A stretch of 64,000 nt of DNA from Bacteroidales bacterium. GTDB lineage: Bacteria > Bacteroidota > Bacteroidia > Bacteroidales > P3. The stretch spans positions 1,170-65,169 of the forward strand of contig JAKSMO010000003.1 of the NCBI GenBank assembly GCA_024400545.1, written 5' to 3'. Below are positions 1,013 to 35,245 of the stretch, in pieces (the stretch's first letter is position 1; the number at the start of each line of letters is the position of its first letter). Under the pieces are notes generated by a model. The model was given only the letters and a program-made list of their open reading frames with translations, did no database searches and was not told where the DNA came from. The translations under genes and the position numbers were made by a program.

Positions 1013-1028
1013 AACCTTAGATTATTTG

Positions 1029-7441: not shown

Positions 7442-7454
7442 GGTGCTAACAGTT

Positions 7455-8765: not shown

Positions 8766-8835
8766 GCACTAAAAACGAGATTTTATAAAAAAAAGTATTT
8801 TAATTCATAAAAAGTTTGTACTTTTGCAATCTGTT

Positions 8836-9456: not shown

Positions 9457-9487
9457 TACTGACATTCAAAAAAATGATTATTCCATA

Positions 9488-9970: not shown

Positions 9971-10008
9971 ATAGGAACACAAAGTAAACAACTACAAATC
10001 AATAATAA

Positions 10009-10878: not shown

Positions 10879-10887
10879 AAAACTGCT

Positions 10888-11328: not shown

Positions 11329-11380
11329 AAGTTGGCTGCCGCCCACGATACAATCTACAATCCGAATTCTACAATCCCAC

Positions 11381-12190: not shown

Positions 12191-12276
12191 GGCTTATTAA
12201 AATCTACATATTACAACTTACAAAAATACATATTTTTTTTGAACTATGAAAAAAATTAAATAAATTTTAAGATTTT

Positions 12277-16775: not shown

Positions 16776-16796
16776 TTGATTTTAGCTTGTAGAATA

Positions 16797-16839
16797 TAGA
16801 ATGTAGAGTTTCTGCTGACACCAGTCACTCTACATTCTA
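16797..16839 (-). terminator. Hairpin downstream of the YitT-family gene
   Basis: The 13-nt arms tagaatgtagagt and actctacattcta flank a 17-nt loop. There is no clear T-run afterwards. Confidence 0.4.
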
Positions 16840-16854
16840 CAATCTCAAAAAATT

Positions 16855-20445: not shown

Positions 20446-20723
20446 TTGACTCTGAGCGCAGCTTACCTAAAATGCTCCGATATCTGCTCGACCACAATAT
20501 ATTGCCCGACGCCTCCCTGGTATCGCTCCATGACGAGAAACACGGCCGCAAAATAGCACAAGACAACACCTATTTCCTTGCCCGTTGCATGCGGTGCGAT
20601 AGTGGTGAACTTTGATTGGTGAATTGTGACTTGTTGAACGGCAGCACAAATTAACATTGACTTTGACGTTAACTTTAACTGGGGCGGCAGCCTGTTAAAG
20701 TCAAGGTTTACGTTAAAGTTGTT

Positions 20724-21977
20724 TTATGAAAGCAATGCCGCTGCAGCCACCGCAGTAACGCCGGGATGCAACTCCCACGAGCGCGAGTCATTAGAGATTA
20801 CATAAGAATGAAGCAATGGCTTGTCTAAGAATTCCTCCAAACCGCGCAGATGTCGGGCATCTGTAGGTTGCACATGCTGTGTTTGCTTTATTTCAAAAGC
20901 CAGATACCCTTCCGGCAATTCTACCAACAAATCCACCTCACGGCCATCATGTGTGCGCAGATGATGGAACTTGGCCGAAGATAACACATTCTTTGCCTGT
21001 TTATACATCTCCGTCACCACAAAACTCTCGAATTCTGATCCCGACATTCCACCACGTTTTTGCAACACTGCCTGAAGCACACCATAGTCCATCATATGAA
21101 CTTTGGGAGCTTTCGATATCCGTTTTCCTTCATTGCGATCCCATGCCGGCAGCACCAAAGCCTGATAACTGATAACTAAATACTGCAAATAGCGCTGCAC
21201 TGTCTTTGCCGACACGCCGGCATCACGACTCAACGTGGCTAGACTATACGTCTGTCCAGTCTGGGCAGCCACGGCTCGCTGTAACTTGGCGTATGGCTCC
21301 AAATCTCTAAAATTGGCCAAATCTCTCACATCACGTTCCAAATAAGTTCGCACATAGTTGTTGAGCCATAGATATCGATCCTCGTCAGTCATCTGTTCAT
21401 CCACCAAGGCCGGATAGCCACCAAAACGGGTCAGAAAATCCCACGCTTGCTGTATCTCAGCCATCCTCGGGTCTAGCACAAACGAGGGCAGTAATGCCAC
21501 ACCATCTTTGGGGTTGGCCAACAACTGCTGAAAGCTACTAAGTCCACATGCATCATTCCAACCATGAGTCAACAACTCTGGCAATGTCAACGGAAACATT
21601 TCAACTATCACGCACCGTCCTGCCAAACTCTCACGCACCTTCTCCAGCAACAAAAACTGAGAGGAGCCCAACAACATATAACGCACATCAGCATAACTGT
21701 CGTATGCAGCTTTAATGCTCTCCACTAGCCGTGGCGACTTCTGCACCTCATCCAAGGCCGCATGCGGATAAAGCTGGTGCCATTGCTGAGCAGTCAGACT
21801 CAAGTAGGCATCTCTGCCCACAGGGTCTTCTATCGATAAATATTGGTAATTTTTCATAGCCGAACGCACCAAAGTAGTCTTTCCGACTTGTCTCGCACCC
21901 GAAAGAACCACAATTCTGCCCAATTTAGAGTCAGCTATATCTTTCAATTTATCAACTATTTGCCGATATTTTCCCAT
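20724..21977 (-). CDS. AAA ATPase, AAA_14 + DUF4143 type
   Basis: The likely start is MGKYRQIVDKL at ATG 21977; the track extends to 22058. Walker A is LSGARQVGKTTLV. A TATATTTG box lies on the minus strand at 22003..22010. Confidence 0.8.
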   Translation of the reverse strand: MGKYRQIVDKLKDIADSKLGRIVVLSGARQVGKTTLVRSAMKNYQYLSIEDPVGRDAYLSLTAQQWHQLYPHAALDEVQKSPRLVESIKAAYDSYADVRYMLLGSSQFLLLEKVRESLAGRCVIVEMFPLTLPELLTHGWNDACGLSSFQQLLANPKDGVALLPSFVLDPRMAEIQQAWDFLTRFGGYPALVDEQMTDEDRYLWLNNYVRTYLERDVRDLANFRDLEPYAKLQRAVAAQTGQTYSLATLSRDAGVSAKTVQRYLQYLVISYQALVLPAWDRNEGKRISKAPKVHMMDYGVLQAVLQKRGGMSGSEFESFVVTEMYKQAKNVLSSAKFHHLRTHDGREVDLLVELPEGYLAFEIKQTQHVQPTDARHLRGLEEFLDKPLLHSYVISNDSRSWELHPGVTAVAAAALLS

Positions 21978-22033
21978 AATTATGTCCGTATTTTTCGCAC
22001 TGCAAATATACGAATAAAAATCGACTTGCTCCC

Positions 22034-22119
22034 ATTTTTGGCGTAAAATCAGGACCAAAAGTCCTATTTTTAGCGTAAATTCGGGACTTACCGTCTCATT
22101 TTTGGCGTAAATTCGGGAC
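22034..22119. repeat. 3 x 22-nt direct repeat, period 32 (atttttGgcgtaaaWtcRggac)
   Basis: Copies at 22034..22055, 22066..22087 and 22098..22119, located upstream of the minus-strand ATPase promoter. Confidence 0.85.
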
Positions 22120-22254
22120 TACACATGAATGGTTGAATTAAAAATAAAAAATAGGAAGTGGCTGCCGCGGCAAAACTCTTTATTTTTCATTCTTCATTCT
22201 GGAGTTGTTAAAACCTCTTTATTTTTATTCTTAATTTTAGGCTCATAAAGCGGT

Positions 22255-22379
22255 ATTCCACAAAAAAAGTGTGGAATAATTCTAAACATTCCACAAAAAA
22301 AGTGTGGAATAATTTCAATATTCCCCAAGAAAAATGTAATTTTCTTAATCTATTCCGCAAAAAAAGTGTATTTTTGCAC
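22255..22379. repeat. 4 x ~27-nt direct repeat, period 32-33 (attccacaaaaaaagtgtggaataatt and degenerate copies)
   Basis: Units begin at 22255, 22288, 22320 and 22352. The first two are identical and each contains the palindrome ttccaca-N7-gtgtggaa. The last unit carries the TATTTTTG -7 box at 22369..22376. Confidence 0.8.
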
Positions 22380-22404
22380 ATTAAACACAAACACCTCAAA
22401 CACC

Positions 22405-23724
22405 ATGAAGAGATTAGTTTACAGCAAGTTAATATCATGGAAAAACAACACCAAGCACAAACCGCTCATCATCCTTGGTGCCCGACAAGTGGGGAAAACC
22501 TACATTTTAAAAGAATTTGGTACAAAAGAATTCGAGTCTATGGTTTACGTCAACTGCCACCGCGATACATTTGCCAAGCAGCTATTCCGAGACCTCAACG
22601 TGGTGCGTATCACGAAAGAGCTGGAACGATATTTCGACACCACTATCGTCCCAGGCAAAACGCTTGTCGTATTCGACGAAATCCAAGAAGTAGAAAATGG
22701 CATCGCCAGCTTGAAATACTTCTGTGAAGACATGCACTCACTGCATGTTGCCGTGGCAGGGTCTTTGTTGGGAATCTCTATCCGCGAAAACGAATCCTAC
22801 CCTGTGGGCAAAGTGCAGACCCTACACATGTTCCCCATGAGCTTCATAGAGTTCCTTATGGCCAGAGGGAAAAATGGCATGGTCGAGACCCTTACCGAGC
22901 TCAACTGGGACATGATGAGTGCCCAACACGAACCACTCATAGAATTGATGCGCGAATACTTTTTTGTGGGAGGCATGCCGGAAGCCGTTGCAGACTACTG
23001 CGAAAACCAAAATCCGACAACGGTACGACAAATACAATCAGAGATACTTGACGCTTACCAACGCGACATAGCCAAGCACACCAAAAACATGGCACAACGC
23101 ATACGCATGGTATGGGACAACATACCGGCACAACTCGCCCGCGAAAACAAGAAATTCATTTTCGGAGCAGTGCGCAAGGGAGGCCGGGCCGCTGATTTCG
23201 AACTAGCACTGCAATGGTTAGCCGAAGCCGGTATCATCACACAGGTGTCCCGAGCCAAGTCAGTCGCCCTTCCATTGAAATTTTATGCCGACCCATCTGC
23301 CTTCAAAGTTTACATGCTCGACTGCGGACTACTCGCATGCATGGCAGGAGCCAACCCCAACGACATGTTACTGGGCACTAATGCCTTTGTCGAATTTAAA
23401 GGAGCTTTTACCGAAAACTACATCCTACAGCAACTCTGTTCAACCTTAGGACGCGACAACATCTACTATTTCGCCAAAGACAACTCAACACAAGAAATCG
23501 ACTTCCTTGTCCAAACACAGGCTAGAACGCTTCCCATCGAGGTCAAGGCCACAGTCAATGTCAAGAGTAAATCGCTGTCAACCTTTATCAACAACGACCA
23601 TGCCGACCAAGGCCTCAAAGGACTGCGTTGCTCCCTCCTACCCTACGCTGACCAAGATTGGATGGAGAACATCCCCCTCTACGCTGCCGAGACTTACTTC
23701 CAACAATATGCTGAATACGTTTAG
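22405..23724 (+). CDS. AAA ATPase, AAA_14 + DUF4143 type
   Basis: The track starts at GTG 22366, and the first ATG at 22405 gives MKRLVYSKLISWK. Walker A is ILGARQVGKTYIL and Walker B is LVVFDEIQ. Confidence 0.8.
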   Translation: MKRLVYSKLISWKNNTKHKPLIILGARQVGKTYILKEFGTKEFESMVYVNCHRDTFAKQLFRDLNVVRITKELERYFDTTIVPGKTLVVFDEIQEVENGIASLKYFCEDMHSLHVAVAGSLLGISIRENESYPVGKVQTLHMFPMSFIEFLMARGKNGMVETLTELNWDMMSAQHEPLIELMREYFFVGGMPEAVADYCENQNPTTVRQIQSEILDAYQRDIAKHTKNMAQRIRMVWDNIPAQLARENKKFIFGAVRKGGRAADFELALQWLAEAGIITQVSRAKSVALPLKFYADPSAFKVYMLDCGLLACMAGANPNDMLLGTNAFVEFKGAFTENYILQQLCSTLGRDNIYYFAKDNSTQEIDFLVQTQARTLPIEVKATVNVKSKSLSTFINNDHADQGLKGLRCSLLPYADQDWMENIPLYAAETYFQQYAEYV

Positions 23725-23758
23725 CCAACCATTTTGATAATTAGCAATCCTCAACACC

Positions 23759-25060
23759 ATGGATTACCTCTACGAAACACGTCGCTTAAAAGAATACTAC
23801 CAAGGACTTGCCAAGGCAGCCGCTTCCATCTTGCCAAAGCAGATGGAAGACGAACTTCGCCAAGACATCGCAGACCCTGCCACCGATCAGCAATATCGCG
23901 AAACCATGTCTTTCTGGGCTTTTGTGTTCCTGCCTTTCTTCAACACCATGGCCTATATTGTCAACAACCGATTCATTCATGAGGATGAGTCCAACATCCT
24001 CGGCGACCTCGACCCTCACAAGCCAACCCTGCCCCCGCAGTCTATCTATCAATTCCTGCTACGTCTCAACCCTATGCCAGCCGAGGAGTTTGTGCGCACC
24101 ATCCAAAGTTCATCTGCCGTCCACGACCACCTTTTAGATGCTCTAACGCAACGCGACGAAGCGCAGTTCTGCACCATCTTGAGCGAGAATCATTGCGGAC
24201 TCGATGTCATCAGCCACCTGTGCAACCAGTTGTGGGACAATGTAAGCGATGTTTTTACATTAGAAGAAAACGAAATACCGATCATGATGGAGGCTTCCCT
24301 TGGCATCACCCGCAGCATCAATGCCTCCACTCCAAACCCCATGATTCCTCACATGGAGCAGGTGGTGCGGTCCGGCGAGCGGCTGGAAGCCGAAGACTCG
24401 GACAAGAATTTCCAGCAGTACATCATTGACTTTAACACCTTTCTCTGCAAATATTTTACCTATCTCATATCGCACTACCTTGACTGGCAAGCGTATTTTT
24501 CCCAGCAAGAAGCCGACCTTCTCAGCCAAATCCTGGCGCGCCCCGAAGGACAGATGCAGTATCAAGCAGCCTTGGCGCAATATCATCAGCAGCAATCCGC
24601 TGCGCACGATGACCTTTCCGCTGCGACCCTGTCCTGGACTCTGCCGTCCGACTTCTTCACCCTTCGTTGCGATGCTGCCCATTGTGAAGAGTATCTTGCC
24701 ATCAACGATGAAATCATCTCGGCCGGTGCCGACAAGTTCGCCCAGCTAATCAACTACTTGGCCGAGAACGACTACATCGGTTCGTCAGCCCAGACCAAAC
24801 AACTTCTGGCCTATCGGCTGGTCGGCAAGATGCGCCCCGATGATGTTGACACGCTAGAATGGCACGGCCACAACAACCAGCCCTACGAGCTCATCTATCT
24901 CATCAAACATCTCTCTGCCCGGGCCAACTACCGCAAGATGCGCCAGTTCTTCACTGGTCCGCAATGGGTCAAAGACCGCGACAGCAGCTATGCCAAGAGT
25001 GCCCATTACGACTTCCGCCGCTTCCTCCACCACCTCTATCCCACCTCATGTCCCCTCTAG
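23759..25060 (+). CDS. Hypothetical protein (433 aa)
   Basis: Long ORF with an ATG start, 35 nt after the ATPase stop. I recognise no motif. Confidence 0.55.
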   Translation: MDYLYETRRLKEYYQGLAKAAASILPKQMEDELRQDIADPATDQQYRETMSFWAFVFLPFFNTMAYIVNNRFIHEDESNILGDLDPHKPTLPPQSIYQFLLRLNPMPAEEFVRTIQSSSAVHDHLLDALTQRDEAQFCTILSENHCGLDVISHLCNQLWDNVSDVFTLEENEIPIMMEASLGITRSINASTPNPMIPHMEQVVRSGERLEAEDSDKNFQQYIIDFNTFLCKYFTYLISHYLDWQAYFSQQEADLLSQILARPEGQMQYQAALAQYHQQQSAAHDDLSAATLSWTLPSDFFTLRCDAAHCEEYLAINDEIISAGADKFAQLINYLAENDYIGSSAQTKQLLAYRLVGKMRPDDVDTLEWHGHNNQPYELIYLIKHLSARANYRKMRQFFTGPQWVKDRDSSYAKSAHYDFRRFLHHLYPTSCPL

Positions 25061-25262
25061 CTCTGCATCCTTACAGTCATGCTTTATGTCGGGGCGAACA
25101 AGTATATAAGTTTATGAGGGACTGGCTTAGTAGCATAATTGATTTGGCGCAGAAGTTGGCAACTTCTTCCGTTTTTAAGAAGGAGGGGGGCAGCCTCACG
25201 CCTGCAGAAAATCAGTTTGTGATAAAAGACCTCTAGGACTTGGCGAATAACGGTACCCTGAC

Positions 25263-25826
25263 TTAGTGCGAATCCAGCTCACCCACAAAATACCTTTTTG
25301 CCGTTTCTGCCGTGGCTTTATATTTGTTCTTAATGAGATACTGAAGCGTTGCTTGGAGCGACCTCATTTCAGGAACATCCTTCATGCCCCAGAAAAGCTT
25401 TGTGAACCTAGAGTCCAAATTGGATGTATTCTGCTTGGATTCTGACAAGAAATTCTTAAAGTCCGTAGGCAAATCATATTTTTCCAAACTTATCTTATTC
25501 TCAGCCGCATTATCAAGAATAAACTTATCAATTGCAGGATTAATTGTGATCAGATATTGTGAGCGACTATTATGCTTGAATAATGTCAGATGACTTGTTT
25601 CTGCAATCTTGCTGCATTGGCTAAAGAAATTATTCTTGCGATGCTGAACACGATCCAAGTCGATAATACCTATAGCGAACCTATCTTTGAACGTATTGTT
25701 CAAACTTCCAATTACATTGTTGCAACCATGCTGATGATTAACCGTACCATGTACTAAGGTCTGTATCAGATTTGTGTCAACGAAACACTCTGGGATAACT
25801 TCTGGATGGTCTAATTTATTCTTCAT
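25263..25826 (-). CDS. Small partner protein of the upstream ATPase, possibly PIN/Toprim-like
   Basis: 187 aa with a 4-nt overlap with the ATPase gene. The N-terminal ECFVDTNLIQTLV and the later GIIDLD are acidic motifs reminiscent of PIN/Toprim nucleases. This is a weak call made by eye only. Confidence 0.6.
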   Translation of the reverse strand: MKNKLDHPEVIPECFVDTNLIQTLVHGTVNHQHGCNNVIGSLNNTFKDRFAIGIIDLDRVQHRKNNFFSQCSKIAETSHLTLFKHNSRSQYLITINPAIDKFILDNAAENKISLEKYDLPTDFKNFLSESKQNTSNLDSRFTKLFWGMKDVPEMRSLQATLQYLIKNKYKATAETAKRYFVGELDSH

Positions 25827-27007
25827 AGATATGCTTCAAAATTAAAAAACAAATCAACCCCATTATAAATCGTATCCTCAATCATATCCTCGGAGAATGA
25901 GACAACATCATATTGATCATCATCGATTGGTCTTGTCATATATAATCGAAAATCTTTCGGACGATACTCCAACATTTGATTTAGCACATAAGGGCTATGT
26001 GTTGTCACGAAAATGGTATGCTTCCTATCACCGGCCATCAACCGATCCAGAATCCAGTTGATGAACTTATACTGAGTTGGAGGAAATAGGTTGTTTTCAG
26101 GTTCCTCTAGGAATATTTCGCTATGGTCAGTCTTTAGCAATCGATTCACATAACCATTAAATTTCTCTCGCTCCTCTTCAGTGCTAAACAGGTACGATTG
26201 CAGCTTGCTATTGAGGTAAAATTCAGTAGTCACTTTCTTTGAACCGCTTTTGGTTGCAAGACAACGGTTATAAATGATGTCGAATGTATGCTTGATTTCT
26301 GCGACCTTATTCAAGGAAAGATTTTGGAGATTCTTCTTTTCATCATCAAAGATTCCATTAAGAAGATAGTCCGTATGCACAAACAAAGGCATAAGCGACT
26401 GAATACCGCTGGATGTTTCAGCCAATTCCAATTCTTTACCACTTTTGAGAACAACAAGATCTTTCTCCTCTGTAGAATCAAAGTGGTAGTTTATTCCTAG
26501 ATTTAGTACGTTTTCTGTAGCGGCTTTGCTTCTTCGCGAAACATCCCACTCTTCCATAAATTCTTGAAGATGCGGGGATACATTTGACAAACCTTTATAA
26601 TCTTTAAAGAGAGAAACAACATTTCTGTCAGATGTGATGTAAGAAACTTTTGGTCTACAGTACCTCCAAGCGTTTCTATTCGTTTTGCAAGAGAATTTTG
26701 CCCTGGGCTTAGCATTGTCAAACGCAAACTTAAGATATGTGGTGCTATATTCAATATAAGAATCTTGTTTCAGGTAATTTCCCATGCCGTAATAATTGAT
26801 CAGATGCTCAATAAAGCAATTCTCCTTCTCAAAATAATCAGAAGATTGGAGTAGCATTATTCTTTTCTCTACCCATGAGCAGAAGCTAGCAATACGCAAG
26901 ATAGAACTTTTCCCCGAACTCTGCACGCCAAAAATCACATTCACCCGATCCAGTTCTATGTCGGCGTTACGTAGCGGTCCAAATCTTTTTACAATCAGAT
27001 GTTTCAT
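25823..27007 (-). CDS. ABC-like P-loop ATPase (AAA_21-type)
   Basis: 394 aa. Motifs: Walker A GVQSSGKSS, LEEPENNLFP, and H-loop TTHSPYVL. Confidence 0.75.
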   Translation of the reverse strand: MKHLIVKRFGPLRNADIELDRVNVIFGVQSSGKSSILRIASFCSWVEKRIMLLQSSDYFEKENCFIEHLINYYGMGNYLKQDSYIEYSTTYLKFAFDNAKPRAKFSCKTNRNAWRYCRPKVSYITSDRNVVSLFKDYKGLSNVSPHLQEFMEEWDVSRRSKAATENVLNLGINYHFDSTEEKDLVVLKSGKELELAETSSGIQSLMPLFVHTDYLLNGIFDDEKKNLQNLSLNKVAEIKHTFDIIYNRCLATKSGSKKVTTEFYLNSKLQSYLFSTEEEREKFNGYVNRLLKTDHSEIFLEEPENNLFPPTQYKFINWILDRLMAGDRKHTIFVTTHSPYVLNQMLEYRPKDFRLYMTRPIDDDQYDVVSFSEDMIEDTIYNGVDLFFNFEAYL

Positions 27008-27089
27008 TATATTTCAATCGTTTGCGAGACACAACTGTAAGTCGATGCTGCGGCATGCAGAATCAAGTTGGTATACTTTTTTTCAGTTG

Positions 27090-27097
27090 CAAAGATA
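27090..27097 (-). promoter_or_regulatory. -7 promoter box (TATCTTTG on the minus strand) for the ATPase/partner operon
   Basis: The plus strand reads caaagata. The box is 83 nt upstream of ATG 27007. Confidence 0.45.
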
Positions 27098-27629
27098 CGA
27101 TTTTTTTTCAAAATACTGCTTTTGTTTGTTTAAAACCAACTTAAATTATGAATCATTGGTGATGTTCGGCACAAAAAATCCTCTCAGCATTTCACTAAGG
27201 AGATGAAATGAAAAAAGTGATACAATGTGTCGTTTTGTCAAGTTGTCATTTTGTAATTTTTTCAATTCTTTCCAAGCAAGCTTGGCTAGAAGGACTGAAA
27301 GAAATTATCAGAAATGTTCCAGAAATTATTGACAACTAGCAATTTCTGATTAACAATGACTTTCTCGGATTTTCACTGGAAATCCTCGTCTTTCAGTGCA
27401 TAAGTTTCGCTTGCGAAACTTAAATAATCCAATTATTAGAGGCTACGCAGAATTATCCGAAGTAACCAACTTCAGGGCGTATTGTAGCGAAATCTGGTCT
27501 ATTGGAGAATATCTGACAACAACCGCGTCAGCCATCTCGCTCTTTTTGAGGGAGGGGGTGGGGCAGGGCGTTTCATGGCTATAGTTACCTATAATTGCCT
27601 ATGGCTCGACGAATCCGAGGATTTTTTTG

Positions 27630-27637
27630 TACTTTTG
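27630..27637 (+). promoter_or_regulatory. -7 promoter box (TACTTTTG)
   Basis: Matches TAnnTTTG and is preceded by a T-run. It is the first of three same-strand boxes upstream of the operon. Confidence 0.35.
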
Positions 27638-27737
27638 CAACACCTAAACAGAGCAGCGCGACACAAATAAAAGACTGAATCATATTGCTTTGGAAAGGAA
27701 AGTCAAGGAGCAAAGGCATTGTTTCAAAAAAAGTGCG

Positions 27738-28060
27738 TATCTTTGCACTCGGAAAACGGCGAGCGACATGCCGTTTCCACACAAAGGTAGCATTACTATC
27801 GTCAGTGTATAGGAATTTGCCCAAATCCCATTGCCAACATGACGAGAAACCGGTGCCTTACTACTTGACGAATGTTCTCGGCGAGAGCCGTTGGACATAT
27901 CCTCCAAGCATAGTACTAGGTCTGAAATCTCTGTTGGCAAGGTCGGGCAAAACCTCTATACGCAGCGATCAGGACCCCGGTTCTATGCTTTTTCTTTGTG
28001 TCACCCGCTCAGCAGAGACACCCACAATACTCCGCCTTGACAGGTTGCAGAACATGAAAA
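27738..28060 (+). ncRNA. Leader-like unit A: promoter box plus a ~300-nt non-coding transcript homologous to the operon 5' UTR
   Basis: TATCTTTG box at 27738..27745. A 5' hairpin pairs GGAAAACGGC with GCCGTTTCC (27751..27778). An internal helix pairs AAGCATAG (27906..27913) with CTATGCTT (27983..27990). The conserved box ggttctatgctttttctttgt lies at 27979..27999. The only ORF is a 3-codon ATG-AAA-AAT-TAA. Confidence 0.4.
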
Positions 28061-28106
28061 ATTAAGAAAAATTTGCAAATAAAGGCTCAGTATCAAAAAA
28101 AATGTG

Positions 28107-28435
28107 TATCTTTGCACCCGGAAATGGAAGAGAGTTTATTCCATTTTCATGCAGCGAAAGCATTTGTATAGGCCGTGAACTAAAAATCGCCAATTTTTAC
28201 AACAGAAGGTCTAGATACTGATGCCTTTCTATTACTTATCGTGCAAGTATGTGTCCCTATCATACTTCTCTTTAAGCATAGAATCGAAGGTCTTCTCAGT
28301 CTCTGTTTCTGTTAGGTGTTTGGCGATACCTTAGTTCCGCGGAGACGATACACCAGAGTTCTATGCTTTCTTTGTACCCAATTATTAACCGCCAACCCGG
28401 GAACTCTGTACGGCAACAAAAAGCATAATAAGCCT
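28107..28435 (+). promoter_or_regulatory. Leader unit B: promoter box plus a ~320-nt structured 5' UTR of the operon
   Basis: TATCTTTG box at 28107..28114. A 5' hairpin pairs GGAAATGGAA with TTCCATTTTC (28120..28148). A helix pairs AAGCATAGAA (28274..28283) with TTCTATGCTT (28359..28368). The unit runs into ATG 28436. Confidence 0.45.
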
Positions 28436-28657
28436 ATGCCGATATTCAGAATCACAGTAAAGAATCCCAAGTTCACCAGTGGAGTCAGGGTGGAGAAAGG
28501 CATGTCTGTAGATGTGGTCACCAACAGCATGGTCAACCCTGTCACAACCAATGGCGGCCAAGAAGTAGCCAACGCCTTTATGAGAATCTACGGAATCGAC
28601 ATCAAAAAAGTCGGTGCCCTCAACATGGCTTATTTGGATGTAGAACGAATTAACTAA
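28436..28657 (+). CDS. Small protein P1 (73 aa)
   Basis: The track ORF starts at GTG 28316 inside the leader. The first ATG at 28436 gives MPIFRITVKNPKFTSGVRVEKGMSVDVV... Confidence 0.55.
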   Translation: MPIFRITVKNPKFTSGVRVEKGMSVDVVTNSMVNPVTTNGGQEVANAFMRIYGIDIKKVGALNMAYLDVERIN

Positions 28658-28671
28658 AATAAATCAAAAAT

Positions 28672-29256
28672 ATGATTGATAATATTCTATTAAATGCAAG
28701 TTCTAATGGGATTGGCCCTTTAGGATGGATTATTATTGGTGGTATAGCGATTGGTGGAGCTGCTTATTGGGCAAAAAAAGGAGAAAAGGATCAAGGTCAA
28801 ACCTCGAGTTCAAATCCCGAGCCAGATTCAAAACCCCATGTCCTATCAGACACACCAAACCAAGTTGAAGCGAAGAAGACTTTCTTGAACAATATTAACG
28901 TCTTCATTCCATTATTAAGATGTACCTCGGACACTAGAGAATCGAAAGATGCTTGGACTGACGCGATTATTGGTACAAATGACTTCAACTTGATTTCTTA
29001 TTGGAAATTGTGTTCCACCAAACCCTTTTCTACTTGGCGCAATGTGCTTGCTTCATGGGGGATAAAAGCAGAGACGTGCACAAGCTTCGTTTACGGTGAT
29101 TTGCTCAAGGGAATGTACATCACACATAACAAATCTGACTTAATTGTTGGCAAAGAATATATTGTTGTTGAACCTTGTTGGTTACAAACTTATGAAGACA
29201 GCAAAGGGAAAACAGTTAAAAGAATACTTTTAGCTGGCGTCGTAAGAGAAAAATAG
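28672..29256 (+). CDS. P2: single-pass membrane protein with a glycine-zipper TM (194 aa)
   Basis: The N-terminal GPLGWIIIGGIAIGGAAYWA is followed by a polar linker and a ~120-aa domain. It starts 14 nt after P1. Confidence 0.6.
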   Translation: MIDNILLNASSNGIGPLGWIIIGGIAIGGAAYWAKKGEKDQGQTSSSNPEPDSKPHVLSDTPNQVEAKKTFLNNINVFIPLLRCTSDTRESKDAWTDAIIGTNDFNLISYWKLCSTKPFSTWRNVLASWGIKAETCTSFVYGDLLKGMYITHNKSDLIVGKEYIVVEPCWLQTYEDSKGKTVKRILLAGVVREK

Positions 29257-29279
29257 ATTCCCTAAAAATAAGATTGAAC

Positions 29280-29870
29280 ATGGCAAAACTTCATACCTAT
29301 AACATTTGCTTTATCGGTAGAACAGGCAACGGGAAAACAAGCTTAATAAACGCATTGTTTAACACCCAATTTCCGACTGACACTCTTGTTGCATGCACAA
29401 AAGAAATGTATTCAGTCACCACTATGGATATCCACCCTATTGGATATGATGCAACAAGTGTTTATGACACACCTGGTATCGGAGAGTTTTCAACAAACGA
29501 CCGATACCAACGGTACTACGAGGATGCAGTTGCAAAAGCCAATTGTGTGGTACTTGTCACAACAATGGATCGTACAGATGCACCTGCCCAACGATTACTG
29601 ATGAGCCTAAAGCAAATTGCACATGAGAGAGACACCAAATTTGTAATTGCTCTCAACCATATTGACTCTAGAATCGTGGCAGACAATGACGAATATAATC
29701 CATGGGACGATAACACAAACTCACCAACAGAATCATGTTTGGCTAAGGTGCAAGAAAGAATTACAATTATCCAGCAGAAATTTGACAACAAGTTTTTGCC
29801 TTTTAATGTAATTCCTGTTTGTGCGAAAAGGAAATACAATATTGACCAATTATTACATATACTATTATGA
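29280..29870 (+). CDS. P3: small TRAFAC GTPase (MMR_HSR1-like)
   Basis: The track starts at TTG 29274, and ATG 29280 gives MAKLHTYNICFIG. Motifs: G1 GRTGNGKTS, G3 DTPGIG, G4 variant LNHID, G5-like VCAK. Confidence 0.75.
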   Translation: MAKLHTYNICFIGRTGNGKTSLINALFNTQFPTDTLVACTKEMYSVTTMDIHPIGYDATSVYDTPGIGEFSTNDRYQRYYEDAVAKANCVVLVTTMDRTDAPAQRLLMSLKQIAHERDTKFVIALNHIDSRIVADNDEYNPWDDNTNSPTESCLAKVQERITIIQQKFDNKFLPFNVIPVCAKRKYNIDQLLHILL

Positions 29871-30691
29871 GTGACCAAAACGAGTATAAATTCCTAGTTG
29901 AACAGATTTTTGCTGCCATTTTAGGAAATAATGTTTCTCAAGAAGATAAAGAAAAAGTCTTCGGAGCATTGGACAAAGAAATCAAGGATAAGCCATTTAG
30001 GGTTGCCGTTATCGGACAGTCCGGTGTTGGAAAATCAACCACGTTAAACGCGGTTTTTGGATTGGAAAATTACACCTCCAGTGTTGCCGAGGGCACAACG
30101 GATATCATCGAAAAAGTGTTCCCTATGAGAGATGGGTTTAACCTCTCGATTTATGATATGCCTGGGCTAAATAATGATGTTGACAAAGACATCGAGTACG
30201 AGAAAATGTATCAGAAGATTCTTCCGGAATGTGATGTAATTGTCTATATTATCAATGCCCATTCAAGAGATTTGGGTGAAGATTGTAGAATCCTAAAAGA
30301 TGTGGTCTTACCTATTTGCTCTGAAAATAAATTGATGGATAATCTAATTCTAGCATTTAACAAGATAGACACCATTGGAGAAACAGAAGACCCTAATGAC
30401 CCAGAACTTCAATGGGATATAGTGCGGAACCTTCCAACAGAAAAGCTGAAAAAGGCCATAAAAATCAAATTGTCTGATTTGAATGATAAATTAATTGATG
30501 AGCAATTGGTAATGAACGGTGTAGAAAATGCCATCTCAACCGACAAGGTTGTGTTTTATTCTGCACAGTTTAACTACAATCTAGGATGCCTTCTCGAAGC
30601 TATCACTAAAGCTGGTAAACGAGGCTGGATTTGGACTGCGACAGTTGGCTTTGAAAGAATCGGCAAATGGAGCGACAAACGATTGATGTAA
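29867..30691 (+). CDS. P4: small TRAFAC GTPase (MMR_HSR1-like)
   Basis: 274 aa with an ATGA overlap with P3. Motifs: G1 GQSGVGKST, G2 EGTTD, G3 DMPGLN, G4 FNKID. Confidence 0.75.
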   Translation: MSDQNEYKFLVEQIFAAILGNNVSQEDKEKVFGALDKEIKDKPFRVAVIGQSGVGKSTTLNAVFGLENYTSSVAEGTTDIIEKVFPMRDGFNLSIYDMPGLNNDVDKDIEYEKMYQKILPECDVIVYIINAHSRDLGEDCRILKDVVLPICSENKLMDNLILAFNKIDTIGETEDPNDPELQWDIVRNLPTEKLKKAIKIKLSDLNDKLIDEQLVMNGVENAISTDKVVFYSAQFNYNLGCLLEAITKAGKRGWIWTATVGFERIGKWSDKRLM

Positions 30692-30696
30692 AATCT

Positions 30697-31107
30697 ATGG
30701 CAAAACTCAATCTATGGAAATATGAATCTTTTCTATCCAAACATGATACTGGTAATATGACAGAAGAACAAAAAAGACAATACAATGAATTGTCCCCAAA
30801 TGGGAAAGCTGAGTACTTAAAGTCAATGGAAAGACATCCTGATTGGTCTCATAATCAACATATGGCCAAAGTTTCTATTATGGAACAAGCTGACGCAACT
30901 ATTGAGGATGGCGGTGTAAATGTAAATCCTAGTGACCCAAAACTGTGGAAAATTGTTTTGGAAAAGGCCAGCTCATTTTTGCATACAATCGGTGCTCTAA
31001 CTAAAGAAATCAAACAAAAATTTGACTATGCTCTTGGCGCAATTAAGTCGTTAATTTCCATGGGCGTAAAAAAAATTGGAGATATCATAACCTCTATTTT
31101 TGGCTAA
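30697..31107 (+). CDS. P5: small helical protein, paralog of P6
   Basis: The likely start is MAKLNLWKYE at ATG 30697; the track start 30667 overlaps P4. It shares the core HPDWS..GG.(N/D).(N/D)P.DP.L.K with P6. Confidence 0.6.
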   Translation: MAKLNLWKYESFLSKHDTGNMTEEQKRQYNELSPNGKAEYLKSMERHPDWSHNQHMAKVSIMEQADATIEDGGVNVNPSDPKLWKIVLEKASSFLHTIGALTKEIKQKFDYALGAIKSLISMGVKKIGDIITSIFG

Positions 31108-31160
31108 GCAAACTGCTACTAAATATAGAATAATAACTTATTTACTTAATTATAATTCAT

Positions 31161-31487
31161 ATGAATAACGAACTGTTCGAAAACATGAAAAAACTCCATC
31201 CTGATTGGAGTGATGCGCAAATTTGGACTGCCATTAGCTTGGACATGGAAAGTGAAAAGCAAATTGAAAAAGGCGGGAAAGACATTGACCCTAATGACCC
31301 TGGCCTGTTAAAGTCCATTGTAGCAGGTGCTAGAGCATGGCTCAAAGAAGTTCTTCCGATTATTTTCGAGAAAGTAAAAGCATTCTTTGATTACATCAAA
31401 GACCATATCGGAGAGTGGGTCGCTGCTGGTCTTGAGGCTGTTAAGAGATGGATTGGCGAAATCCTGCCTACATTTATCGGCTTCTAA
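31161..31487 (+). CDS. P6: small helical protein, paralog of P5
   Basis: 108 aa. LHPDWSDAQIWTAISLDMESEKQIEKGGKDIDPNDPGLLKSIV aligns with the P5 segment RHPDWSHNQHMAKVSIMEQADATIEDGGVNVNPSDPKLWKIVL. Confidence 0.6.
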   Translation: MNNELFENMKKLHPDWSDAQIWTAISLDMESEKQIEKGGKDIDPNDPGLLKSIVAGARAWLKEVLPIIFEKVKAFFDYIKDHIGEWVAAGLEAVKRWIGEILPTFIGF

Positions 31488-31501
31488 TCAAGTTGTGTCG
31501 A

Positions 31502-31532
31502 AAATAGGGGATAGCCTTGCTTTCCCCTATTT
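31502..31532 (+). promoter_or_regulatory. Intra-operon hairpin with a 9-bp stem
   Basis: AAATAGGGG (31502..31510) pairs with CCCCTATTT (31524..31532) around a 13-nt loop. No T-run follows. Confidence 0.45.
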
Positions 31533-31583
31533 CCGATACATATGAACTACCCAGACTAAAGTTAAACAAGCGTAATACGTATT

Positions 31584-32216
31584 ATGGCTGAAAAAGAAGT
31601 TTCTCAGAGTACAATAATGAAAGCAATGGACTGGGCATACGACAAAGCTGTGAACGGAATCCCAGGTTTTGACTCAGCAGAGGACATGGCTCACGACTAT
31701 CTTCAAGGAGATGGATCATTAAGAGATAAGGCCAATCGATTGATTCGATGGCAAAATGCAAAGTCAGGAACATCAGGATTTGTAACTGGCCTTGGTGGAC
31801 TACTAACATTGCCACTCACTCTTCCTGCAAATATTACTAGTGTGTTATATGTCCAGATTAGAATGATTGCCGCAATCGCAAAGATGGGAGGATATGACCT
31901 TAAAGACGACCGCGTAAAATCATTAGTATATTCTTGCTTGGTGGCCACCTCTGCTGCTGATGTGGTAAAGCAAACAGGACTAAAAATAGGCGAGAAAATT
32001 GCAGTCAATGCCGTCAAAAACATATCAAAAGAAACAATAAAACAAATTAATGCAAAAGTTGGATTTAAGCTCTTTACAAAGTTCGGAGAGAAAGGGGTAA
32101 TCAACATTGGTAAAACCATTCCAATTTTAGGAGGTCTTATTGGTGGTATTTTTGATGTTGTCAGCACCAATACTATCGGCAATGTTGCAAGAGACACATT
32201 CATCCCTAGACCTTAG
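31584..32216 (+). CDS. P7: EcsC/DUF697-like protein with glycine-zipper segments (tentative)
   Basis: 210 aa, with GTSGFVTGLGGLLTLPLTLPANITSVLYVQIRMIAAIAKMGG and IPILGGLIGGIFDVVS. The family assignment is by eye only. Confidence 0.55.
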   Translation: MAEKEVSQSTIMKAMDWAYDKAVNGIPGFDSAEDMAHDYLQGDGSLRDKANRLIRWQNAKSGTSGFVTGLGGLLTLPLTLPANITSVLYVQIRMIAAIAKMGGYDLKDDRVKSLVYSCLVATSAADVVKQTGLKIGEKIAVNAVKNISKETIKQINAKVGFKLFTKFGEKGVINIGKTIPILGGLIGGIFDVVSTNTIGNVARDTFIPRP

Positions 32217-32302
32217 TTCAAATAACACACGCTGATGTCAATTGGCAGCCTGATAAAACAGTAAATATCAAATTCTTTCGTTTTTCAAGGAAAACCAATT
32301 AC

Positions 32303-32719
32303 ATGAAAATAGAATTATCATTTGAAGAGATTCTGTCGGTTTTGGCAGATAATTATAACATTCCGAGCCTTAGAGTGACACAAGTTGACGAGAACACCAT
32401 CAAAATTGCCAAACCTTTATTGATTGTTTCTCCGTCCGTGAAGGTCTCAATTATGGATGTGAGCGATAATGATATTATCATTCATCAAAACAAGCTAACC
32501 ACAGCAGCTACTAAGATTCTCGATTTCTTTGGTTCCAATATTAACACATCAGTTGTAAGCATGGCCGATGACAGAATCACTATTCACCTAAAGCAAATCC
32601 CTCAACTGGCCAAAGTACTTGAGAAAGTAAACCTTGAAAACATTCGATTTACGAATGATTCTGTAGTCTTGAACTTGTCAGCAGTTCATCCACTTAAATT
32701 CAAGACGAATTTATCATGA
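32303..32719 (+). CDS. P8: hypothetical protein (138 aa)
   Basis: ATG-initiated ORF on the same strand. I recognise no motif. Confidence 0.5.
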   Translation: MKIELSFEEILSVLADNYNIPSLRVTQVDENTIKIAKPLLIVSPSVKVSIMDVSDNDIIIHQNKLTTAATKILDFFGSNINTSVVSMADDRITIHLKQIPQLAKVLEKVNLENIRFTNDSVVLNLSAVHPLKFKTNLS

Positions 32720-32752
32720 AACCAAAATCAGACATACTTAATACATACTTTT

Positions 32753-34486
32753 ATGATAAATGAAGACACTCTTATTGATCTGACACTGGAGGTTGCCAAA
32801 TATTATTTCAAGAAAAACAACCCCATTCTAAAAGAGGCAAAAGTCTCTGTTGATCGTGTAGCAGCAAAGCACCTCAGCCAGAAGCTTATGGATGTTATAA
32901 AAAAACATGCTAATGTTGTTTCGTTGGCGGGCATGGCAGATGCTATTCCTGCGGTAGGAGCGGCTGTGGACATTGGCGCAGTGATAGCATCCACATGGAA
33001 AATGTATGCTGGGATAAATGAATGTTTAGGAATCTCTATCTCCGAAAATAAATTGAAGTCCATGGCATCCGGGGTAGTGTCAAATTTAGCTGGCAATGGA
33101 GTTGGGTATGCGGCGCATTCTGTGGCGAATGGGGTCGCCACATCAGTTCCAATATTTGGCAATGTTGTAGGTGCCGTCTGTGGTTGTGTGGTCAACCGTG
33201 CGTCATTATATACTTCAGCTGCGACTTATCTGAATATTATGTGTAAGATAATGTCTTCTGGTGGCACATTTGATGAAAATTCATTGTCCGACCTTACCAG
33301 TAACAATCGGCACATATGGAATGATCCCTATTCTGAAGTTATCAACATAGGAACGATAGGGCATGCAGGGCACGGAAAGTCAACGCTGACGGCTGCTATA
33401 ACTCAGGTTTTAGCCTGTTATGGGACATGCGAAACTGTGTCGGTAAGAGATTTGGATCGTGCACCTAATGAAATCCAACAGGGTGTTTCTATCCAGACGG
33501 CCCATATAGGATACGCCATTAATGACATTCAGTTCCATCACATTGACTGTCCTGGTCATGCTAACTATGTGAAGAATATGATTGTAGGATCAAGCCAAAT
33601 GGATGCGGCCATACTTGTTGTTGCTGCAACTGATGGTCCAATGCCACAAACACGAGAGCACCTCTTATTAGCACGACAAAATGGAATAAAAAAAATAATA
33701 GTATTCCTGAACAAAATTGAGGTAATAGATGATGATGATTTACTCGATTTAGTTGAATTCGAGATTAGAGAACTATTAGATACTTATGATTATGATGGAA
33801 CCAGCACACCCATCATAAGAGGCTCGGCATTGCAAGCACTCAAGGGCAATCGAACTGCAATTCAATCAGTCGAAAACCTAATCCATGAAATGAGTTTGTT
33901 GCCCTTACCCAAAAGATGTATTTCAAAACCATTCAGACTACCTGTTGAGAAAGCAATACCGATAGACAATTACACTGTACAAATTATGGGTACTGTCAAT
34001 ACTGGCAGAATCACTATTGGGGAAAAAATTGATATTGTTGGATTAATGAATGAATCAATTACTGCCAGTGTGATGTCTATCCAAGTTGATAACCATGATT
34101 CTTCATATTGCCAAGCAGGAATGTACGCCTCTCTCATATTAAATGGAGATTTCAAAAACAAAGTGAAAAGAGGGGCTACTGCAGCAGCAATAGATACAGT
34201 CTACCCATCATCCTGCTTTGAGGCTTCTGCTTATATTTTAAAAAAGGAAGAAGGTGGACGCCAAACTGCATTTCGCAATAACTATCAACCTCAATTTTAC
34301 ATCGGAACAGCAAACATAACAGGCACAATTTCACTTCCTGATAGTAGAATCCTGGCCAACCCCGGCGACAACCTCACGTTCAAGGTAAAATTAAGTATGC
34401 CTTTGGCAATTAATCAGTACGAAAGGTTTTCCATGAGAGATAATGGCAAAACTATTGGGGCAGGAATAATAACAAAATTACTTTAA
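32753..34486 (+). CDS. P9: divergent EF-Tu paralog (all three domains) fused to a ~190-aa N-terminal glycine-zipper domain
   Basis: 577 aa. From ~aa 195 it is collinear with EF-Tu. Matching segments are INIGTIGHAGHGKSTLTAAIT (G1), DCPGHANYVKNMI (G3), ILVVAATDGPMPQTREHLLLARQ, IIVFLNKIEVIDDDDLLDLVEFEIRELL (G4 region), PIIRGSALQAL (G5) and the C-terminus GKTIGAGIITKLL. The N-terminus carries AIPAVGAAVDIGAVIAS and VPIFGNVVGAVCGCVVN. Confidence 0.85.
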   Translation: MINEDTLIDLTLEVAKYYFKKNNPILKEAKVSVDRVAAKHLSQKLMDVIKKHANVVSLAGMADAIPAVGAAVDIGAVIASTWKMYAGINECLGISISENKLKSMASGVVSNLAGNGVGYAAHSVANGVATSVPIFGNVVGAVCGCVVNRASLYTSAATYLNIMCKIMSSGGTFDENSLSDLTSNNRHIWNDPYSEVINIGTIGHAGHGKSTLTAAITQVLACYGTCETVSVRDLDRAPNEIQQGVSIQTAHIGYAINDIQFHHIDCPGHANYVKNMIVGSSQMDAAILVVAATDGPMPQTREHLLLARQNGIKKIIVFLNKIEVIDDDDLLDLVEFEIRELLDTYDYDGTSTPIIRGSALQALKGNRTAIQSVENLIHEMSLLPLPKRCISKPFRLPVEKAIPIDNYTVQIMGTVNTGRITIGEKIDIVGLMNESITASVMSIQVDNHDSSYCQAGMYASLILNGDFKNKVKRGATAAAIDTVYPSSCFEASAYILKKEEGGRQTAFRNNYQPQFYIGTANITGTISLPDSRILANPGDNLTFKVKLSMPLAINQYERFSMRDNGKTIGAGIITKLL

Positions 34487-34504
34487 TATTTTCATAGATA
34501 TTCG

Positions 34505-34873
34505 ATGAAATCAAACTCCATTGAATTTAATCAGAACGCACGGCGGGTTTATACTGCGGTGAGGCATACTTTTGAGACTTGCGATATGTTTCATCGGGTG
34601 AAGTGCGACGATATGAACTTTGTGATTACTGCCAAGCATGGGGCTAGTCTGCTGGCTTTGGGTGAGAATATCAAGGTGAGGGTGGTGGCAACTAGCACCC
34701 AAAGCAGCAAGGTGGTGGTGGAGTCGGGCAACCAATTCCCCATCAACATCCTCAACATAGGGCAGAACAAGCAGAACGTCACCACCCTCACCGAGTTCAT
34801 AGCCAACCGTGTATATCGACTCTGCAGCGATGAGGAAATCAAATTGCGCCCTACAGAAATCAAATTCAAATAG
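34505..34873 (+). CDS. P10: hypothetical protein (122 aa)
   Basis: It starts 18 nt after P9 on the same strand and is visibly more GC-rich than P1-P9. I recognise no motif. Confidence 0.5.
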   Translation: MKSNSIEFNQNARRVYTAVRHTFETCDMFHRVKCDDMNFVITAKHGASLLALGENIKVRVVATSTQSSKVVVESGNQFPINILNIGQNKQNVTTLTEFIANRVYRLCSDEEIKLRPTEIKFK

Positions 34874-35169: not shown

Positions 35170-35245
35170 TGGAGCGATAGACGGGGTTCGAACCCGCGAC
35201 CTGCGGCTTGGGAAGCCGCCGCTCTGCCAACTGAGCTACTATCGC
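35170..35245 (-). tRNA. tRNA-Gly (anticodon CCC), CCA encoded
   Basis: The reverse complement is GCGATAGTAGCTCAGTTGGCAGAGCGGCGGCTTCCCAAGCCGCAGGTCGCGGGTTCGAACCCCGTCTATCGCTCCA. It folds as a cloverleaf: 7-bp acceptor stem, GCTC/GAGC D stem, GCGGC/GCCGC anticodon stem with loop TTCCCAA, and T-loop TTCGAAC. Confidence 0.93.

Follow-up and report, generated by a model that had tools for sequence, protein, structure and literature searches.

The ten genes P1–P10, which occupy positions 28436–34873 of a 64,000-nucleotide (nt) stretch of Bacteroidales DNA (contig JAKSMO010000003.1, here called the window), are best explained as the present filling of a cassette slot that varies among strains, i.e., as a mosaic of defence-like membrane and GTPase modules and not as one dedicated machine; we put the probability of this reading slightly above one half (about 0.55). 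The slot is a locus type specific to Bacteroidales, whose recurring parts are a non-coding leader, the DUF6140 protein P1, and, often, a closing gene of the P10 family. Homologous recombination would swap cargo modules between leader/P1 and P10, and the present cargo would comprise at least four separable ones: P2–P3–P4, P5–P6–P7, P8, and P9. The argument draws on the modular anatomy of the operon, cassette swaps at a single site, the distribution of the modules over other loci, covariation in the leader RNA, and the degeneracy of P9, an EF-Tu fusion.

Cassette exchange at one chromosomal site

The complete ten-gene order is found only in a near-identical strain (L007), where it is ~100% identical to the window. 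Two further loci occupy the same site with other contents: L002, a contig of a sister strain that carries the P9 relative P0001, and L008, from the genome that represents the same species or a sister species in GTDB. L002 and the window have in common, on the left side, an ATPase gene pair, the leader, and P1 (94% DNA identity over 24219–28685), and, on the right side, P8–P9–P10 (96% over 32301–34871). In place of P2–P7, L002 encodes dynamin-like proteins of 685 and 660 amino acids (aa) and a 334-aa coiled-coil transmembrane (TM) protein; one breakpoint lies where P2 starts, the other 2 nt upstream of P8. L008 is syntenic with the window on both sides (18136–25092 at 80%; the tRNA-Gly/PNPase region at 89.5%), and inside the island shares only 27474–28651 (leader and P1, 93.6%) and P10 (89.8%). 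Its cargo consists of three Dynamin_N proteins, a small coiled-coil protein, and a PP-binding protein (16557–17321). The ATPase pair (25263–27007) is present in L002 yet absent from syntenic L008, and hence represents an independent indel within the island.

Codon differences from L002 are distributed unevenly over the shared right-hand genes. P9 (L002 10001–11740) shows 0 synonymous and 6 nonsynonymous changes, five of the six in its hydrophobic N-domain, plus a 2-codon indel; P8 shows 17 synonymous and 21 nonsynonymous changes (38/136 codons), and P10, 20 and 5, respectively (25/122 codons). As P9 is near-invariant while P8 and P10 have diverged, the modules move independently, and the pattern suggests a recent exchange of P9 alone.

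Distribution of the modules

P3 and P4 are recognized by Pfam as MMR_HSR1 (9e-11 and 6e-14), with the G1, G3, and G4 motifs visible in the sequence. The P2–P3–P4 trio recurs after P1 in L086 (36%, 62%, and 68% identity). In the PADLOC models of Eleos, P3 matches positions 73–190 of 601 of LeoBC (6.7e-14), and P4, positions 27–190 of 559 of LeoA (2.2e-10). Assignment of P3/P4 to LeoA/LeoBC was considered and rejected, as the match does not extend over most of the model and true members score 3.8e-147 and 8.7e-103.

The small helical proteins P5 and P6 are paralogous to each other (30% identity, E 2e-14) and lack relatives in other DUF6140 loci. P7 belongs to the EcsC family (PF12787; 8e-14, 52.2 bits vs a cutoff of 30.4) and over residues 4–209 of 210 matches positions 10–215 of 220 of the PADLOC candidate PDC-S29 (profile PDLC04988; 2.8e-89, 296 bits). 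Relatives of P7 in 57 metagenome loci are usually solitary and almost never stand beside P3–P6, P8, or P9; directly after P1 they are seen in L073, L091, and L093, and an adjacent GTPase only in L100. P8 has no match in Pfam, PADLOC, PHROGs, or PDB; its relatives occur in L002, L045, L057, L078, and L021, and in L078 the gene adjoins a P10 relative, with P9 missing.

The frame: P1, P10, and their neighbours

P1 matches DUF6140 (PF19637) over the entire model (positions 1–69/69; 1.4e-34, 118.3 bits vs a cutoff of 27). A scan of 185,579 species genomes yields P1 in 79 loci at 62–99% identity, nearly all in metagenome-assembled genomes of Bacteroidales, and the protein collection holds 710 cluster representatives. 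Genes downstream of P1 in these 79 loci are hypervariable and unrelated. Recurrent cargo includes dynamin-like GTPase pairs or trios, small TM-anchored GTPases, and an AAA+ ATPase, and, further, FGE-sulfatase-like, Sel1, DUF1232, Zn-ribbon/Gly-rich, and P9 N-domain-related proteins; tandem pairs of P1-headed units are seen in L028, L049, L074, and L093. In one very common gut species an identical P1 (P0228, on at least 876 contigs) follows a gene of the Zn-ribbon family of ~570–600 aa, and is itself followed by differing genes in different assemblies of that species.

The AlphaFold 2 model of P1 (mean predicted local distance difference test score, pLDDT, 84) contains four strands, two helices, and one strand; it has no significant structural neighbour in PDB (best E 0.5) or BFVD (best E 0.13), and the same comparison reveals no similarity to NusG or KOW. 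DUF6140 is not mentioned in the literature searched. P10, also without a Pfam or PDB-sequence match, stands at the same position in L008; of the 40 loci whose sequence continues for at least 9 kb downstream of P1, 15 carry a P10 relative in the same orientation, 1.4–8.3 kb from P1. Neither P1 nor P9 has relatives in IMG/VR, even by profile, which speaks against a phage origin of the two.

The DUF6140 unit was also seen within a larger element. In L148/L149 (about 1–12600, another species), leader, Zn-ribbon gene, and DUF6140 unit, with a 728-aa LRR/Big_2 protein after the unit, are enclosed in an element also encoding resolvase, SSAP, and DUF3871 proteins; since it is found there together with a resolvase and SSAP, the unit should be able to travel on mobile DNA. 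A further neighbour is a 433-aa protein (window 23759–25060, plus strand) without a Pfam or PDB-sequence match, which lies upstream of the leader/DUF6140 unit. Its family holds this place in the window, L008, L014, L018, and L021, and may be part of the conserved frame.

The leader

Profile iteration with nhmmer identifies a non-coding leader of ~370 nt upstream of DUF6140 operons. The profile detects it in 45 or more of the 87 upstream regions and, in another species, in all 10 loci. This front end is 92–97% identical between the window and L002 and L008, compared with 80–90% for the housekeeping flanks. A TAnnTTTG box is invariant in leader alignment A3 and is held within a segment of ~130–190 bp bracketed by inverted-repeat arms of 10–19 bp. 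The arms vary in sequence among loci yet remain complementary, with 348 of 380 positions Watson–Crick, G:T at 7, and A:C at 6. As the arms covary without a G:T bias, their pairing is likely to be at the level of DNA rather than RNA. On the same count (7 G:U vs 6 A:C mismatches) we rejected an RNA helix formed by the repeats; G:U amounts to 1.8% there, vs roughly 14–16% of cells in RNA helix H3. The pattern points to DNA repeats such as those of invertible promoters. A flipped segment is not seen in the assembled sequences of 87 upstream regions, 143 loci, the window, and 10 further assemblies, and no recombinase is found among the window ORFs (open reading frames) scanned, which were a part of all ORFs of the window. 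Bacteroides invertases can work in trans.

The core of the leader covaries as RNA. The covariation score over 32 pairs in 35 sequences is 0.367, vs 0.185 in shuffled data (0 of 500 shuffles reach the observed value) and 0.06–0.12 (maximum 0.124) with partners slid; changes on both sides are observed in 28 of the 32 pairs. In helix H3, all nine pairs are altered on both sides, 94.6% of cells are paired, and G-U pairs are frequent. Folds of single sequences exceed shuffles in stability (z −3.9 and −5.4), and three leader copies have no match in Rfam 15 at E up to 1–5. We consider the leader a candidate structured cis-regulatory RNA, its conserved secondary structure being supported by compensatory changes. 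It probably sets the expression of whichever cargo is installed, by attenuation or by promoter inversion; attenuation would run through H3 and the U-rich tract with alternative pairings, and inversion may act in addition.

P9, an EF-Tu fusion

P9 residues 197–577 align end to end with residues 12–393 of solved EF-Tu structures (E 3e-114), and Pfam finds GTP_EFTU (4e-49), D2 (4e-4), and D3 (7e-27) after an extension of ~195 aa. The protein stays below the NCBIfam cutoffs for EF-Tu (440.9 vs 452 bits for PRK12736; 424.1 vs 522.4 for TIGR00485); its EF-Tu part is 49% identical to Bacteroidales EF-Tu, the housekeeping copies being 94% alike. Among 41 housekeeping EF-Tus, 302 positions are invariant to at least 97%, and P9 departs from them at 127. 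Among the replacements are D21G and T25S in the P-loop; K56I, R58Q, and T61S in switch I; NKCD replaced by NKIE (D138E); the domain-2 motif VFSITGRGTVVTGR replaced by AIPIDNYTVQIMGT (VFSITGRGTV of the aminoacyl-tRNA, or aa-tRNA, pocket becoming AIPIDNYTVQ); and, further, E259Q, F261D, R262N, N273Y, H319Q, R327Q, R333G, and R381K. GHGKS, DCPGH, and SAL are retained.

P9 probably still binds nucleotide. The acceptor-end pocket motif of domain 2 and many tRNA- and ribosome-contact residues are replaced; read through established knowledge of EF-Tu structure and function, the loss of the pocket residues makes it very unlikely that P9 carries aa-tRNA, and an earlier proposal that it monitors aa-tRNA status is not supported. 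By its residues, P9 is most likely not a translation factor. We also considered P9 as the housekeeping, and possibly only, tuf gene and excluded it by the scores below the EF-Tu cutoffs, the 49% identity, and the absence of P9 from the syntenic L008 locus. The window contains no other EF-Tu gene; as L008 lacks P9 at that site, the gene is accessory.

Full-length relatives are rare: among 5.8 billion proteins searched, only P0001 (99%) and P0003 (43%) are genuine, and the remaining matches are housekeeping EF-Tus, ~50% identical over the C-terminal two thirds. Three other long candidates (P0002, P0004, P0005) were rejected as ordinary tuf genes in str or secE–nusG contexts with miscalled or misassembled extensions.

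The N-domain is DUF697-like, Gly/Ala-rich, and has two hydrophobic segments. Its score against DUF697 (PF05128), 17.5–21.3 bits, is under the cutoff of 27.7; 5 of 12 members of the N-domain family have sub-threshold DUF697 matches (best 9.7e-5), and a distant kinship is possible. PDB sequences give nothing significant in profile or sequence search. Homology to P7 is unsupported, with no BLASTP match and an hhalign probability of 2.7%. The family has 235 representatives among 1.84 billion proteins, in which the domain is always N-terminal; most are stand-alone proteins of 120–230 aa, and 33 of 149 newly listed representatives exceed 300 aa. In 46 longer members, Pfam identifies as C-terminal partners PP-binding (5), EF-Tu (3 besides P9), Sel1 (3), TPR, and, in one family member each, HSP20 and TRADD-like_N; other domains in these members are GYF_2, Zn ribbons, MORN, MMR_HSR1, Dynamin_N, and TerB. 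The PP-binding, or acyl-carrier-protein (ACP), domain recurs as cargo or as a fusion to the N-domain (L008 16557–17321; L054 11212–12009; P0268, P0273, P0295).

Two EF-Tu fusions, P0003 and P0254, keep the canonical motifs and are 60–64% identical to housekeeping EF-Tu. A different N-domain, in which a hydrophobic, Gly-rich stretch separates two CxxC Zn-ribbon halves, is fused to EF-Tu in L030 (10700–12134); this EF-Tu part is near-canonical (75% identical to housekeeping EF-Tu), and the gene, inside which the contig ends, stands in a DUF6140 operon after a DUF1232 protein. Since the P0003, P0254, and L030 fusions exist, the joining of EF-Tu to a membrane-type domain is recurrent, and P9 is, in its sequence, the most degenerate of these fusions.

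Defence context and proposed function

The ATPase beside P1–P10 matches PDC-M29A of PADLOC (2.6e-52) as well as AAA_15 and AAA_21 of Pfam. Elsewhere, the DUF6140 operons of L033 and L074 contain complete Eleos (LeoA 3.8e-147, LeoBC 8.7e-103), L018-type cassettes contain an IetA-like AAA+ protein (4e-28), L073, a HerA-like ATPase, and L055, a viperin-like (pVip-like) protein (8e-16). From this context, i.e., from P7 as PDC-S29, the ATPase as PDC-M29A, and the Eleos, IetA-like, and viperin-like cargo of other loci, we infer a slot of defence type whose cargo serves phage defence or, more broadly, conflict. The preliminary description of P1–P10 had suggested a conflict system: the defence-like character of the locus stands, the single ten-gene system does not. 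It had also proposed PADLOC as a check of novelty, and here no known multi-gene system matches the whole cluster, while P7 does correspond to a listed candidate. A second low-GC stretch (window 1029–5905, minus strand) encodes a type I restriction–modification (R-M) specificity subunit, an N6_Mtase/HsdR_N fusion, and another AAA_15/21 ATPase; with type I R-M and AAA_15/21 ATPases also present, the window holds several defence-type loci.

In the proposed mechanism, NTPase switches (P3, P4, and the G domain of P9) would gate membrane-active partners (the TM segment of P2, the EcsC protein P7, and the N-domain of P9), and the outcome would be abortive infection via membrane damage. For P9 we consider it most likely, speculatively, that the EF-Tu-shaped body acts as a nucleotide-switched bait or sensor surface on a membrane domain. 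Phage defence is known to involve EF-Tu: the protein comes under attack in Lit and type IV Thoeris defence, and in Avs7 its domains II and III can provide a scaffold for the sensing of a phage capsid protein (PMC12803255). A bait role is conceivable because EF-Tu surfaces take part in phage sensing in the one case and are attacked in the others, and it would parallel the family members with ACP, HSP20, TPR/Sel1, or TRADD-N in the place of EF-Tu.

A more far-reaching proposal joins two claims: that DUF6140 operons are a Bacteroidales-wide plug-and-play platform for immune cargo, where a riboregulatory, possibly phase-variable leader and P1 control the installed cassette, and that the P9 family are single-chain integrated-decoy sensors. 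The DUF697-like, membrane-disrupting N-domain would be restrained by a bait copy of an abundant, phage-exploited host protein (EF-Tu, ACP, HSP20); a phage factor binding or modifying the bait would release the membrane domain and thus abort the infection. Taken jointly, the two claims are unlikely.

Several points weigh against a mosaic of defence-like modules. P2, P5, P6, P8, P9, and P10 have no PADLOC match; the LeoA/LeoBC matches of P3/P4 are restricted to the G domain (1e-10 to 7e-14); PDC-S29 and PDC-M29 are computational candidates, the former listed as a PADLOC match in the literature found; and the association of DUF6140 with defence genes comes from a sample of ~30 cargo proteins. No effector with an established killing activity was recognized in the cargo, and the single-sequence structure model of P9 has a pLDDT of 31. 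In this strain, the ten genes could nonetheless share a transcript and work together, and the theme of the cargo fits a non-immune membrane role too, as dynamin-like and EcsC/DUF697-type proteins act in membrane maintenance. In the literature searched, papers on conflict systems from the Aravind group do not mention EF-Tu, DUF697, EcsC, or dynamin, and nothing relevant was found for DUF697.

Alternative explanations

A membrane role is the alternative that survives best, although it is unlikely. The locus would then be a non-immune accessory locus for membrane remodelling or envelope stress, in which dynamin-like or small GTPases and EcsC/DUF697, DUF1232, and AAA+ proteins would act in membrane repair, reshaping, or vesicle formation, with strain variation as niche adaptation. 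Membrane-associated NTPases and small TM proteins indeed dominate the cargo, and neither a nuclease nor another classical immune effector was found with Pfam and PADLOC. LeoABC was reportedly connected with vesicle-associated secretion at first, and the YcjX/YcjF pair of NTPase and DUF697 membrane protein belongs to a heat-shock regulon. This role is at odds with presence/absence and wholesale replacement among strains of one species, with co-located R-M and abortive-infection-like ATPases, with strong matches to the Eleos models, and with fusions to TRADD-N, TPR, and Sel1, which are typical of conflict systems (PMC8195603).

It is improbable that P1–P10 are unrelated cargo of a mobile element recently integrated at tRNA-Gly, the apparent operon being an accident of insertion history. 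In favour are the low-GC island of 25.0–35.0 kb, which adjoins tRNA-Gly, and the L148/L149 unit of another species, whose surrounding element encodes resolvase and SSAP. Against it, neither an integrase nor a recombinase turned up in the island or the ORFs tested, IMG/VR contains no relatives, leader with P1, and P10, hold the same chromosomal position in syntenic L008, and the 433-aa family recurs as the upstream neighbour in L014, L018, and L021.

Highly improbable are cassettes of interbacterial antagonism, i.e., polymorphic effector/immunity arrays whose variable C-terminal payloads share one constant N-terminal domain that directs them. A constant N-domain with a variable C-terminus does characterize the P9 N-domain and Zn-ribbon families, and P1-headed units form tandem arrays in L028, L049, L074, and L093. 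The variable C-termini (EF-Tu, ACP, HSP20, TPR/Sel1, LRR) are, however, binding or bait-like rather than toxin domains; roughly 40 cargo proteins scanned include no secretion-system genes or toxin families; and P9 has no evident signal peptide (N-terminus MINEDTLIDL).

The least probable reading, that of the preliminary description, takes P1–P10 for a single co-evolved system of ten genes, whose two small GTPases and EF-Tu paralogue would jointly monitor translation or aa-tRNA status and trigger glycine-zipper effectors. Tight same-strand packing with a 4-nt overlap, the intact block in a second sample (L007), P-loop and switch motifs kept in all three NTPases, and the role of EF-Tu as a phage-defence node (Lit, type IV Thoeris, Avs7; PMC12803255) speak for it, but it is largely refuted by failed co-conservation, as L007 is ~100% identical and hence of the same lineage, P2–P7 (L002) and P2–P9 (L008) are replaced at the same site, P7 is alone in about 50 loci, P2–P4 occur in L086 without evidence of the other genes, though the L086 contig ends there, the P8 relative of L078 adjoins a P10 relative with P9 absent, and the aa-tRNA pocket of P9 is destroyed.

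Gene layout and composition

The features of the locus are listed in Table 1. The ten plus-strand ORFs of the preliminary description are all present, as are the 4-nt overlap and the short intergenic gaps (14–96 nt); the start of P5 at ATG 30667 implies a 25-nt overlap with P4, and the gene call in L007 places it after P4. The described contrast in composition is likewise borne out, with a GC content of 0.35–0.46 in P1–P9, 0.48 in P10, and 0.50–0.60 in the housekeeping flanks; the low-GC island spans ~25.0–35.0 kb and includes the minus-strand ATPase pair as well as P1–P10. The adjacent tRNA-Gly was identified as tRNA-Gly(CCC), in a region with PNPase that is syntenic in L008.

The domain calls for two GTPases, the P5/P6 paralogues, an EcsC-like P7, and a complete EF-Tu in P9 hold, and domain profile scans of P1–P10 confirm that there is no nuclease, methylase, reverse transcriptase, or integrase. 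Of the claimed glycine-zipper modules, a Gly-rich TM segment in P2 and a Gly/Ala-rich N-domain in P9 are retained; the latter is sub-threshold for DUF697 and not demonstrably related to P7. P2, P5, P6, P8, and P10 have no family match in Pfam, NCBIfam, and PHROGs, apart from a weak match of P10 in PHROGs (1e-3), where P3 and P4 have only P-loop-level matches.

A divergent pair of AAA_14/DUF4143 ATPase genes (20724–22058, minus strand; 22366–23724, plus strand) shortly precedes the island. A 1599-aa ORF (42249–47048, minus strand), without a Pfam match at 1e-5, adjoins a CarboxypepD_reg/OMP beta-barrel protein.

Table 1. Features of the cassette slot and its borders (window coordinates).
Feature	Position	Strand	Description
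AAA_15/21 ATPase and partner	25263–27007	−	ATPase of 394 aa, PDC-M29A-like; 187-aa partner without family (PADLOC, Pfam)
Conserved non-coding front end	27474–28435	+	Leader 28047–28421 and partial upstream duplicate of promoter segment, 27712–27857
Promoter segment, inverton-like	28081–28228	+	Inverted repeats: left 28081–28094, right 28214–28228
Bacteroides-type −7 box TATCTTTG	28107–28114	+	Inside the segment bracketed by inverted repeats
Structured 5′-untranslated region (5′-UTR), core	28186–28375	+	Helices H2 and H3, U-rich tract
Helix H2	28186–28193 with 28320–28327	+	Four sequence variants exist
Helix H3	28276–28283 with 28359–28366	+	Followed by U-rich tract 28367–28375, terminator-like
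P1	28436–28657	+	DUF6140 protein, 73 aa; conserved early gene of variable operons
P2	28672–29256	+	194 aa; one Gly-rich N-terminal TM segment; no family
P3	29274–29870	+	198 aa; small MMR_HSR1-type GTPase
P4	29867–30691	+	274 aa; small MMR_HSR1-type GTPase; 4-nt overlap with P3
P5	30667–31107	+	Small protein, paralogue of P6; no family
P6	31161–31487	+	Small protein, paralogue of P5; no family
P7	31584–32216	+	EcsC family; PADLOC candidate PDC-S29
P8	32303–32719	+	138 aa; no family assignment
P9	32753–34486	+	N-domain (residues 1–194) and divergent three-domain EF-Tu (residues 195–577)
P10	34505–34873	+	122 aa; frequent closing gene of DUF6140 operons; no family
tRNA-Gly(CCC)	35170–35245	−	Right-hand chromosomal boundary; PNPase gene next

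Significance and comparison with known systems

Gut Bacteroidales are poorly covered in current catalogues of defence systems. A cassette slot recognizable by a 73-aa protein and a ~370-nt leader might serve as an anchor for mining immune or conflict genes, as do the defence hotspots of enterobacteria, and a leader RNA in front of cargo that includes the validated Eleos family makes shared RNA-level or phase-variable control of immunity possible. Should P9-type fusions act as baits, bacteria would possess a counterpart to integrated-decoy immune receptors, and EF-Tu would have a new role in the conflict between phage and host; should the modules instead serve membrane maintenance, the locus remains a record of modules being exchanged unusually fast at a fixed position in the chromosome.

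In the databases and literature searched, no system is described that has the DUF6140 frame, the leader RNA, or P9-type fusions with EF-Tu, ACP, or HSP20. Among the closest known systems is Eleos, the dynamin-like LeoA/LeoBC anti-phage system (Millman et al., 2022, bioRxiv 10.1101/2022.05.11.491447), where paired GTPases are likewise encoded with membrane-associated partners; bona fide LeoA and LeoBC occupy the DUF6140-headed slot in L033 and L074, and distant dynamin-like proteins, that of L008 and L002. Unlike these, P3 (198 aa) and P4 (274 aa) match ~120–180 G-domain residues of models of 560–600 positions and lack the stalk and paddle regions, and P2 and P5–P7 have no Eleos counterparts. 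With the predicted candidate PDC-S29, P7 shares a full-length match and relatives that are usually solitary, as PDC-S29 is; here, in contrast, it belongs to a larger operon, behind P5/P6.

NTPases paired with DUF697 or EcsC membrane proteins are represented by YcjX–YcjF of E. coli, GTPase–DUF697 fusions, and EcsA–EcsC of B. subtilis. The combination of a P-loop NTPase with an EcsC/DUF697-type domain appears twice in the window, in P3/P4 with P7 and within P9; the N-domain of P9 is, however, under the DUF697 threshold, and its NTPase is an EF-Tu and not Era/Der-like or of the YcjX type. EF-Tu is also the protein surface involved in Lit, type IV Thoeris, and Avs7 (PMC12803255), but there it is the housekeeping EF-Tu in trans, whereas P9 is a dedicated, diverged EF-Tu fused to a membrane-type domain. 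Also unlike these systems, P1–P10 include no protease, nuclease, or STAND NTPase.

UpxY and UpxZ are first-gene regulators of Bacteroides capsule loci. These loci, which have an invertible promoter and a long 5′-UTR (PMC13139388), resemble the DUF6140 operons in the promoter bracketed by inverted repeats, the long structured leader, the small conserved first gene, and the variable cargo. They differ in that neither an inverted copy (in the assemblies) nor a recombinase (among the window ORFs scanned) was found here, P1 has no detectable NusG/KOW similarity, and the cargo is not polysaccharide biosynthesis. Finally, in the integrated decoys of plant NLR receptors, a copy of a pathogen-targeted host protein is fused to an immune executor; the likeness is one of analogy only, but such an arrangement would account for one N-domain ending variously in EF-Tu, ACP, or HSP20.

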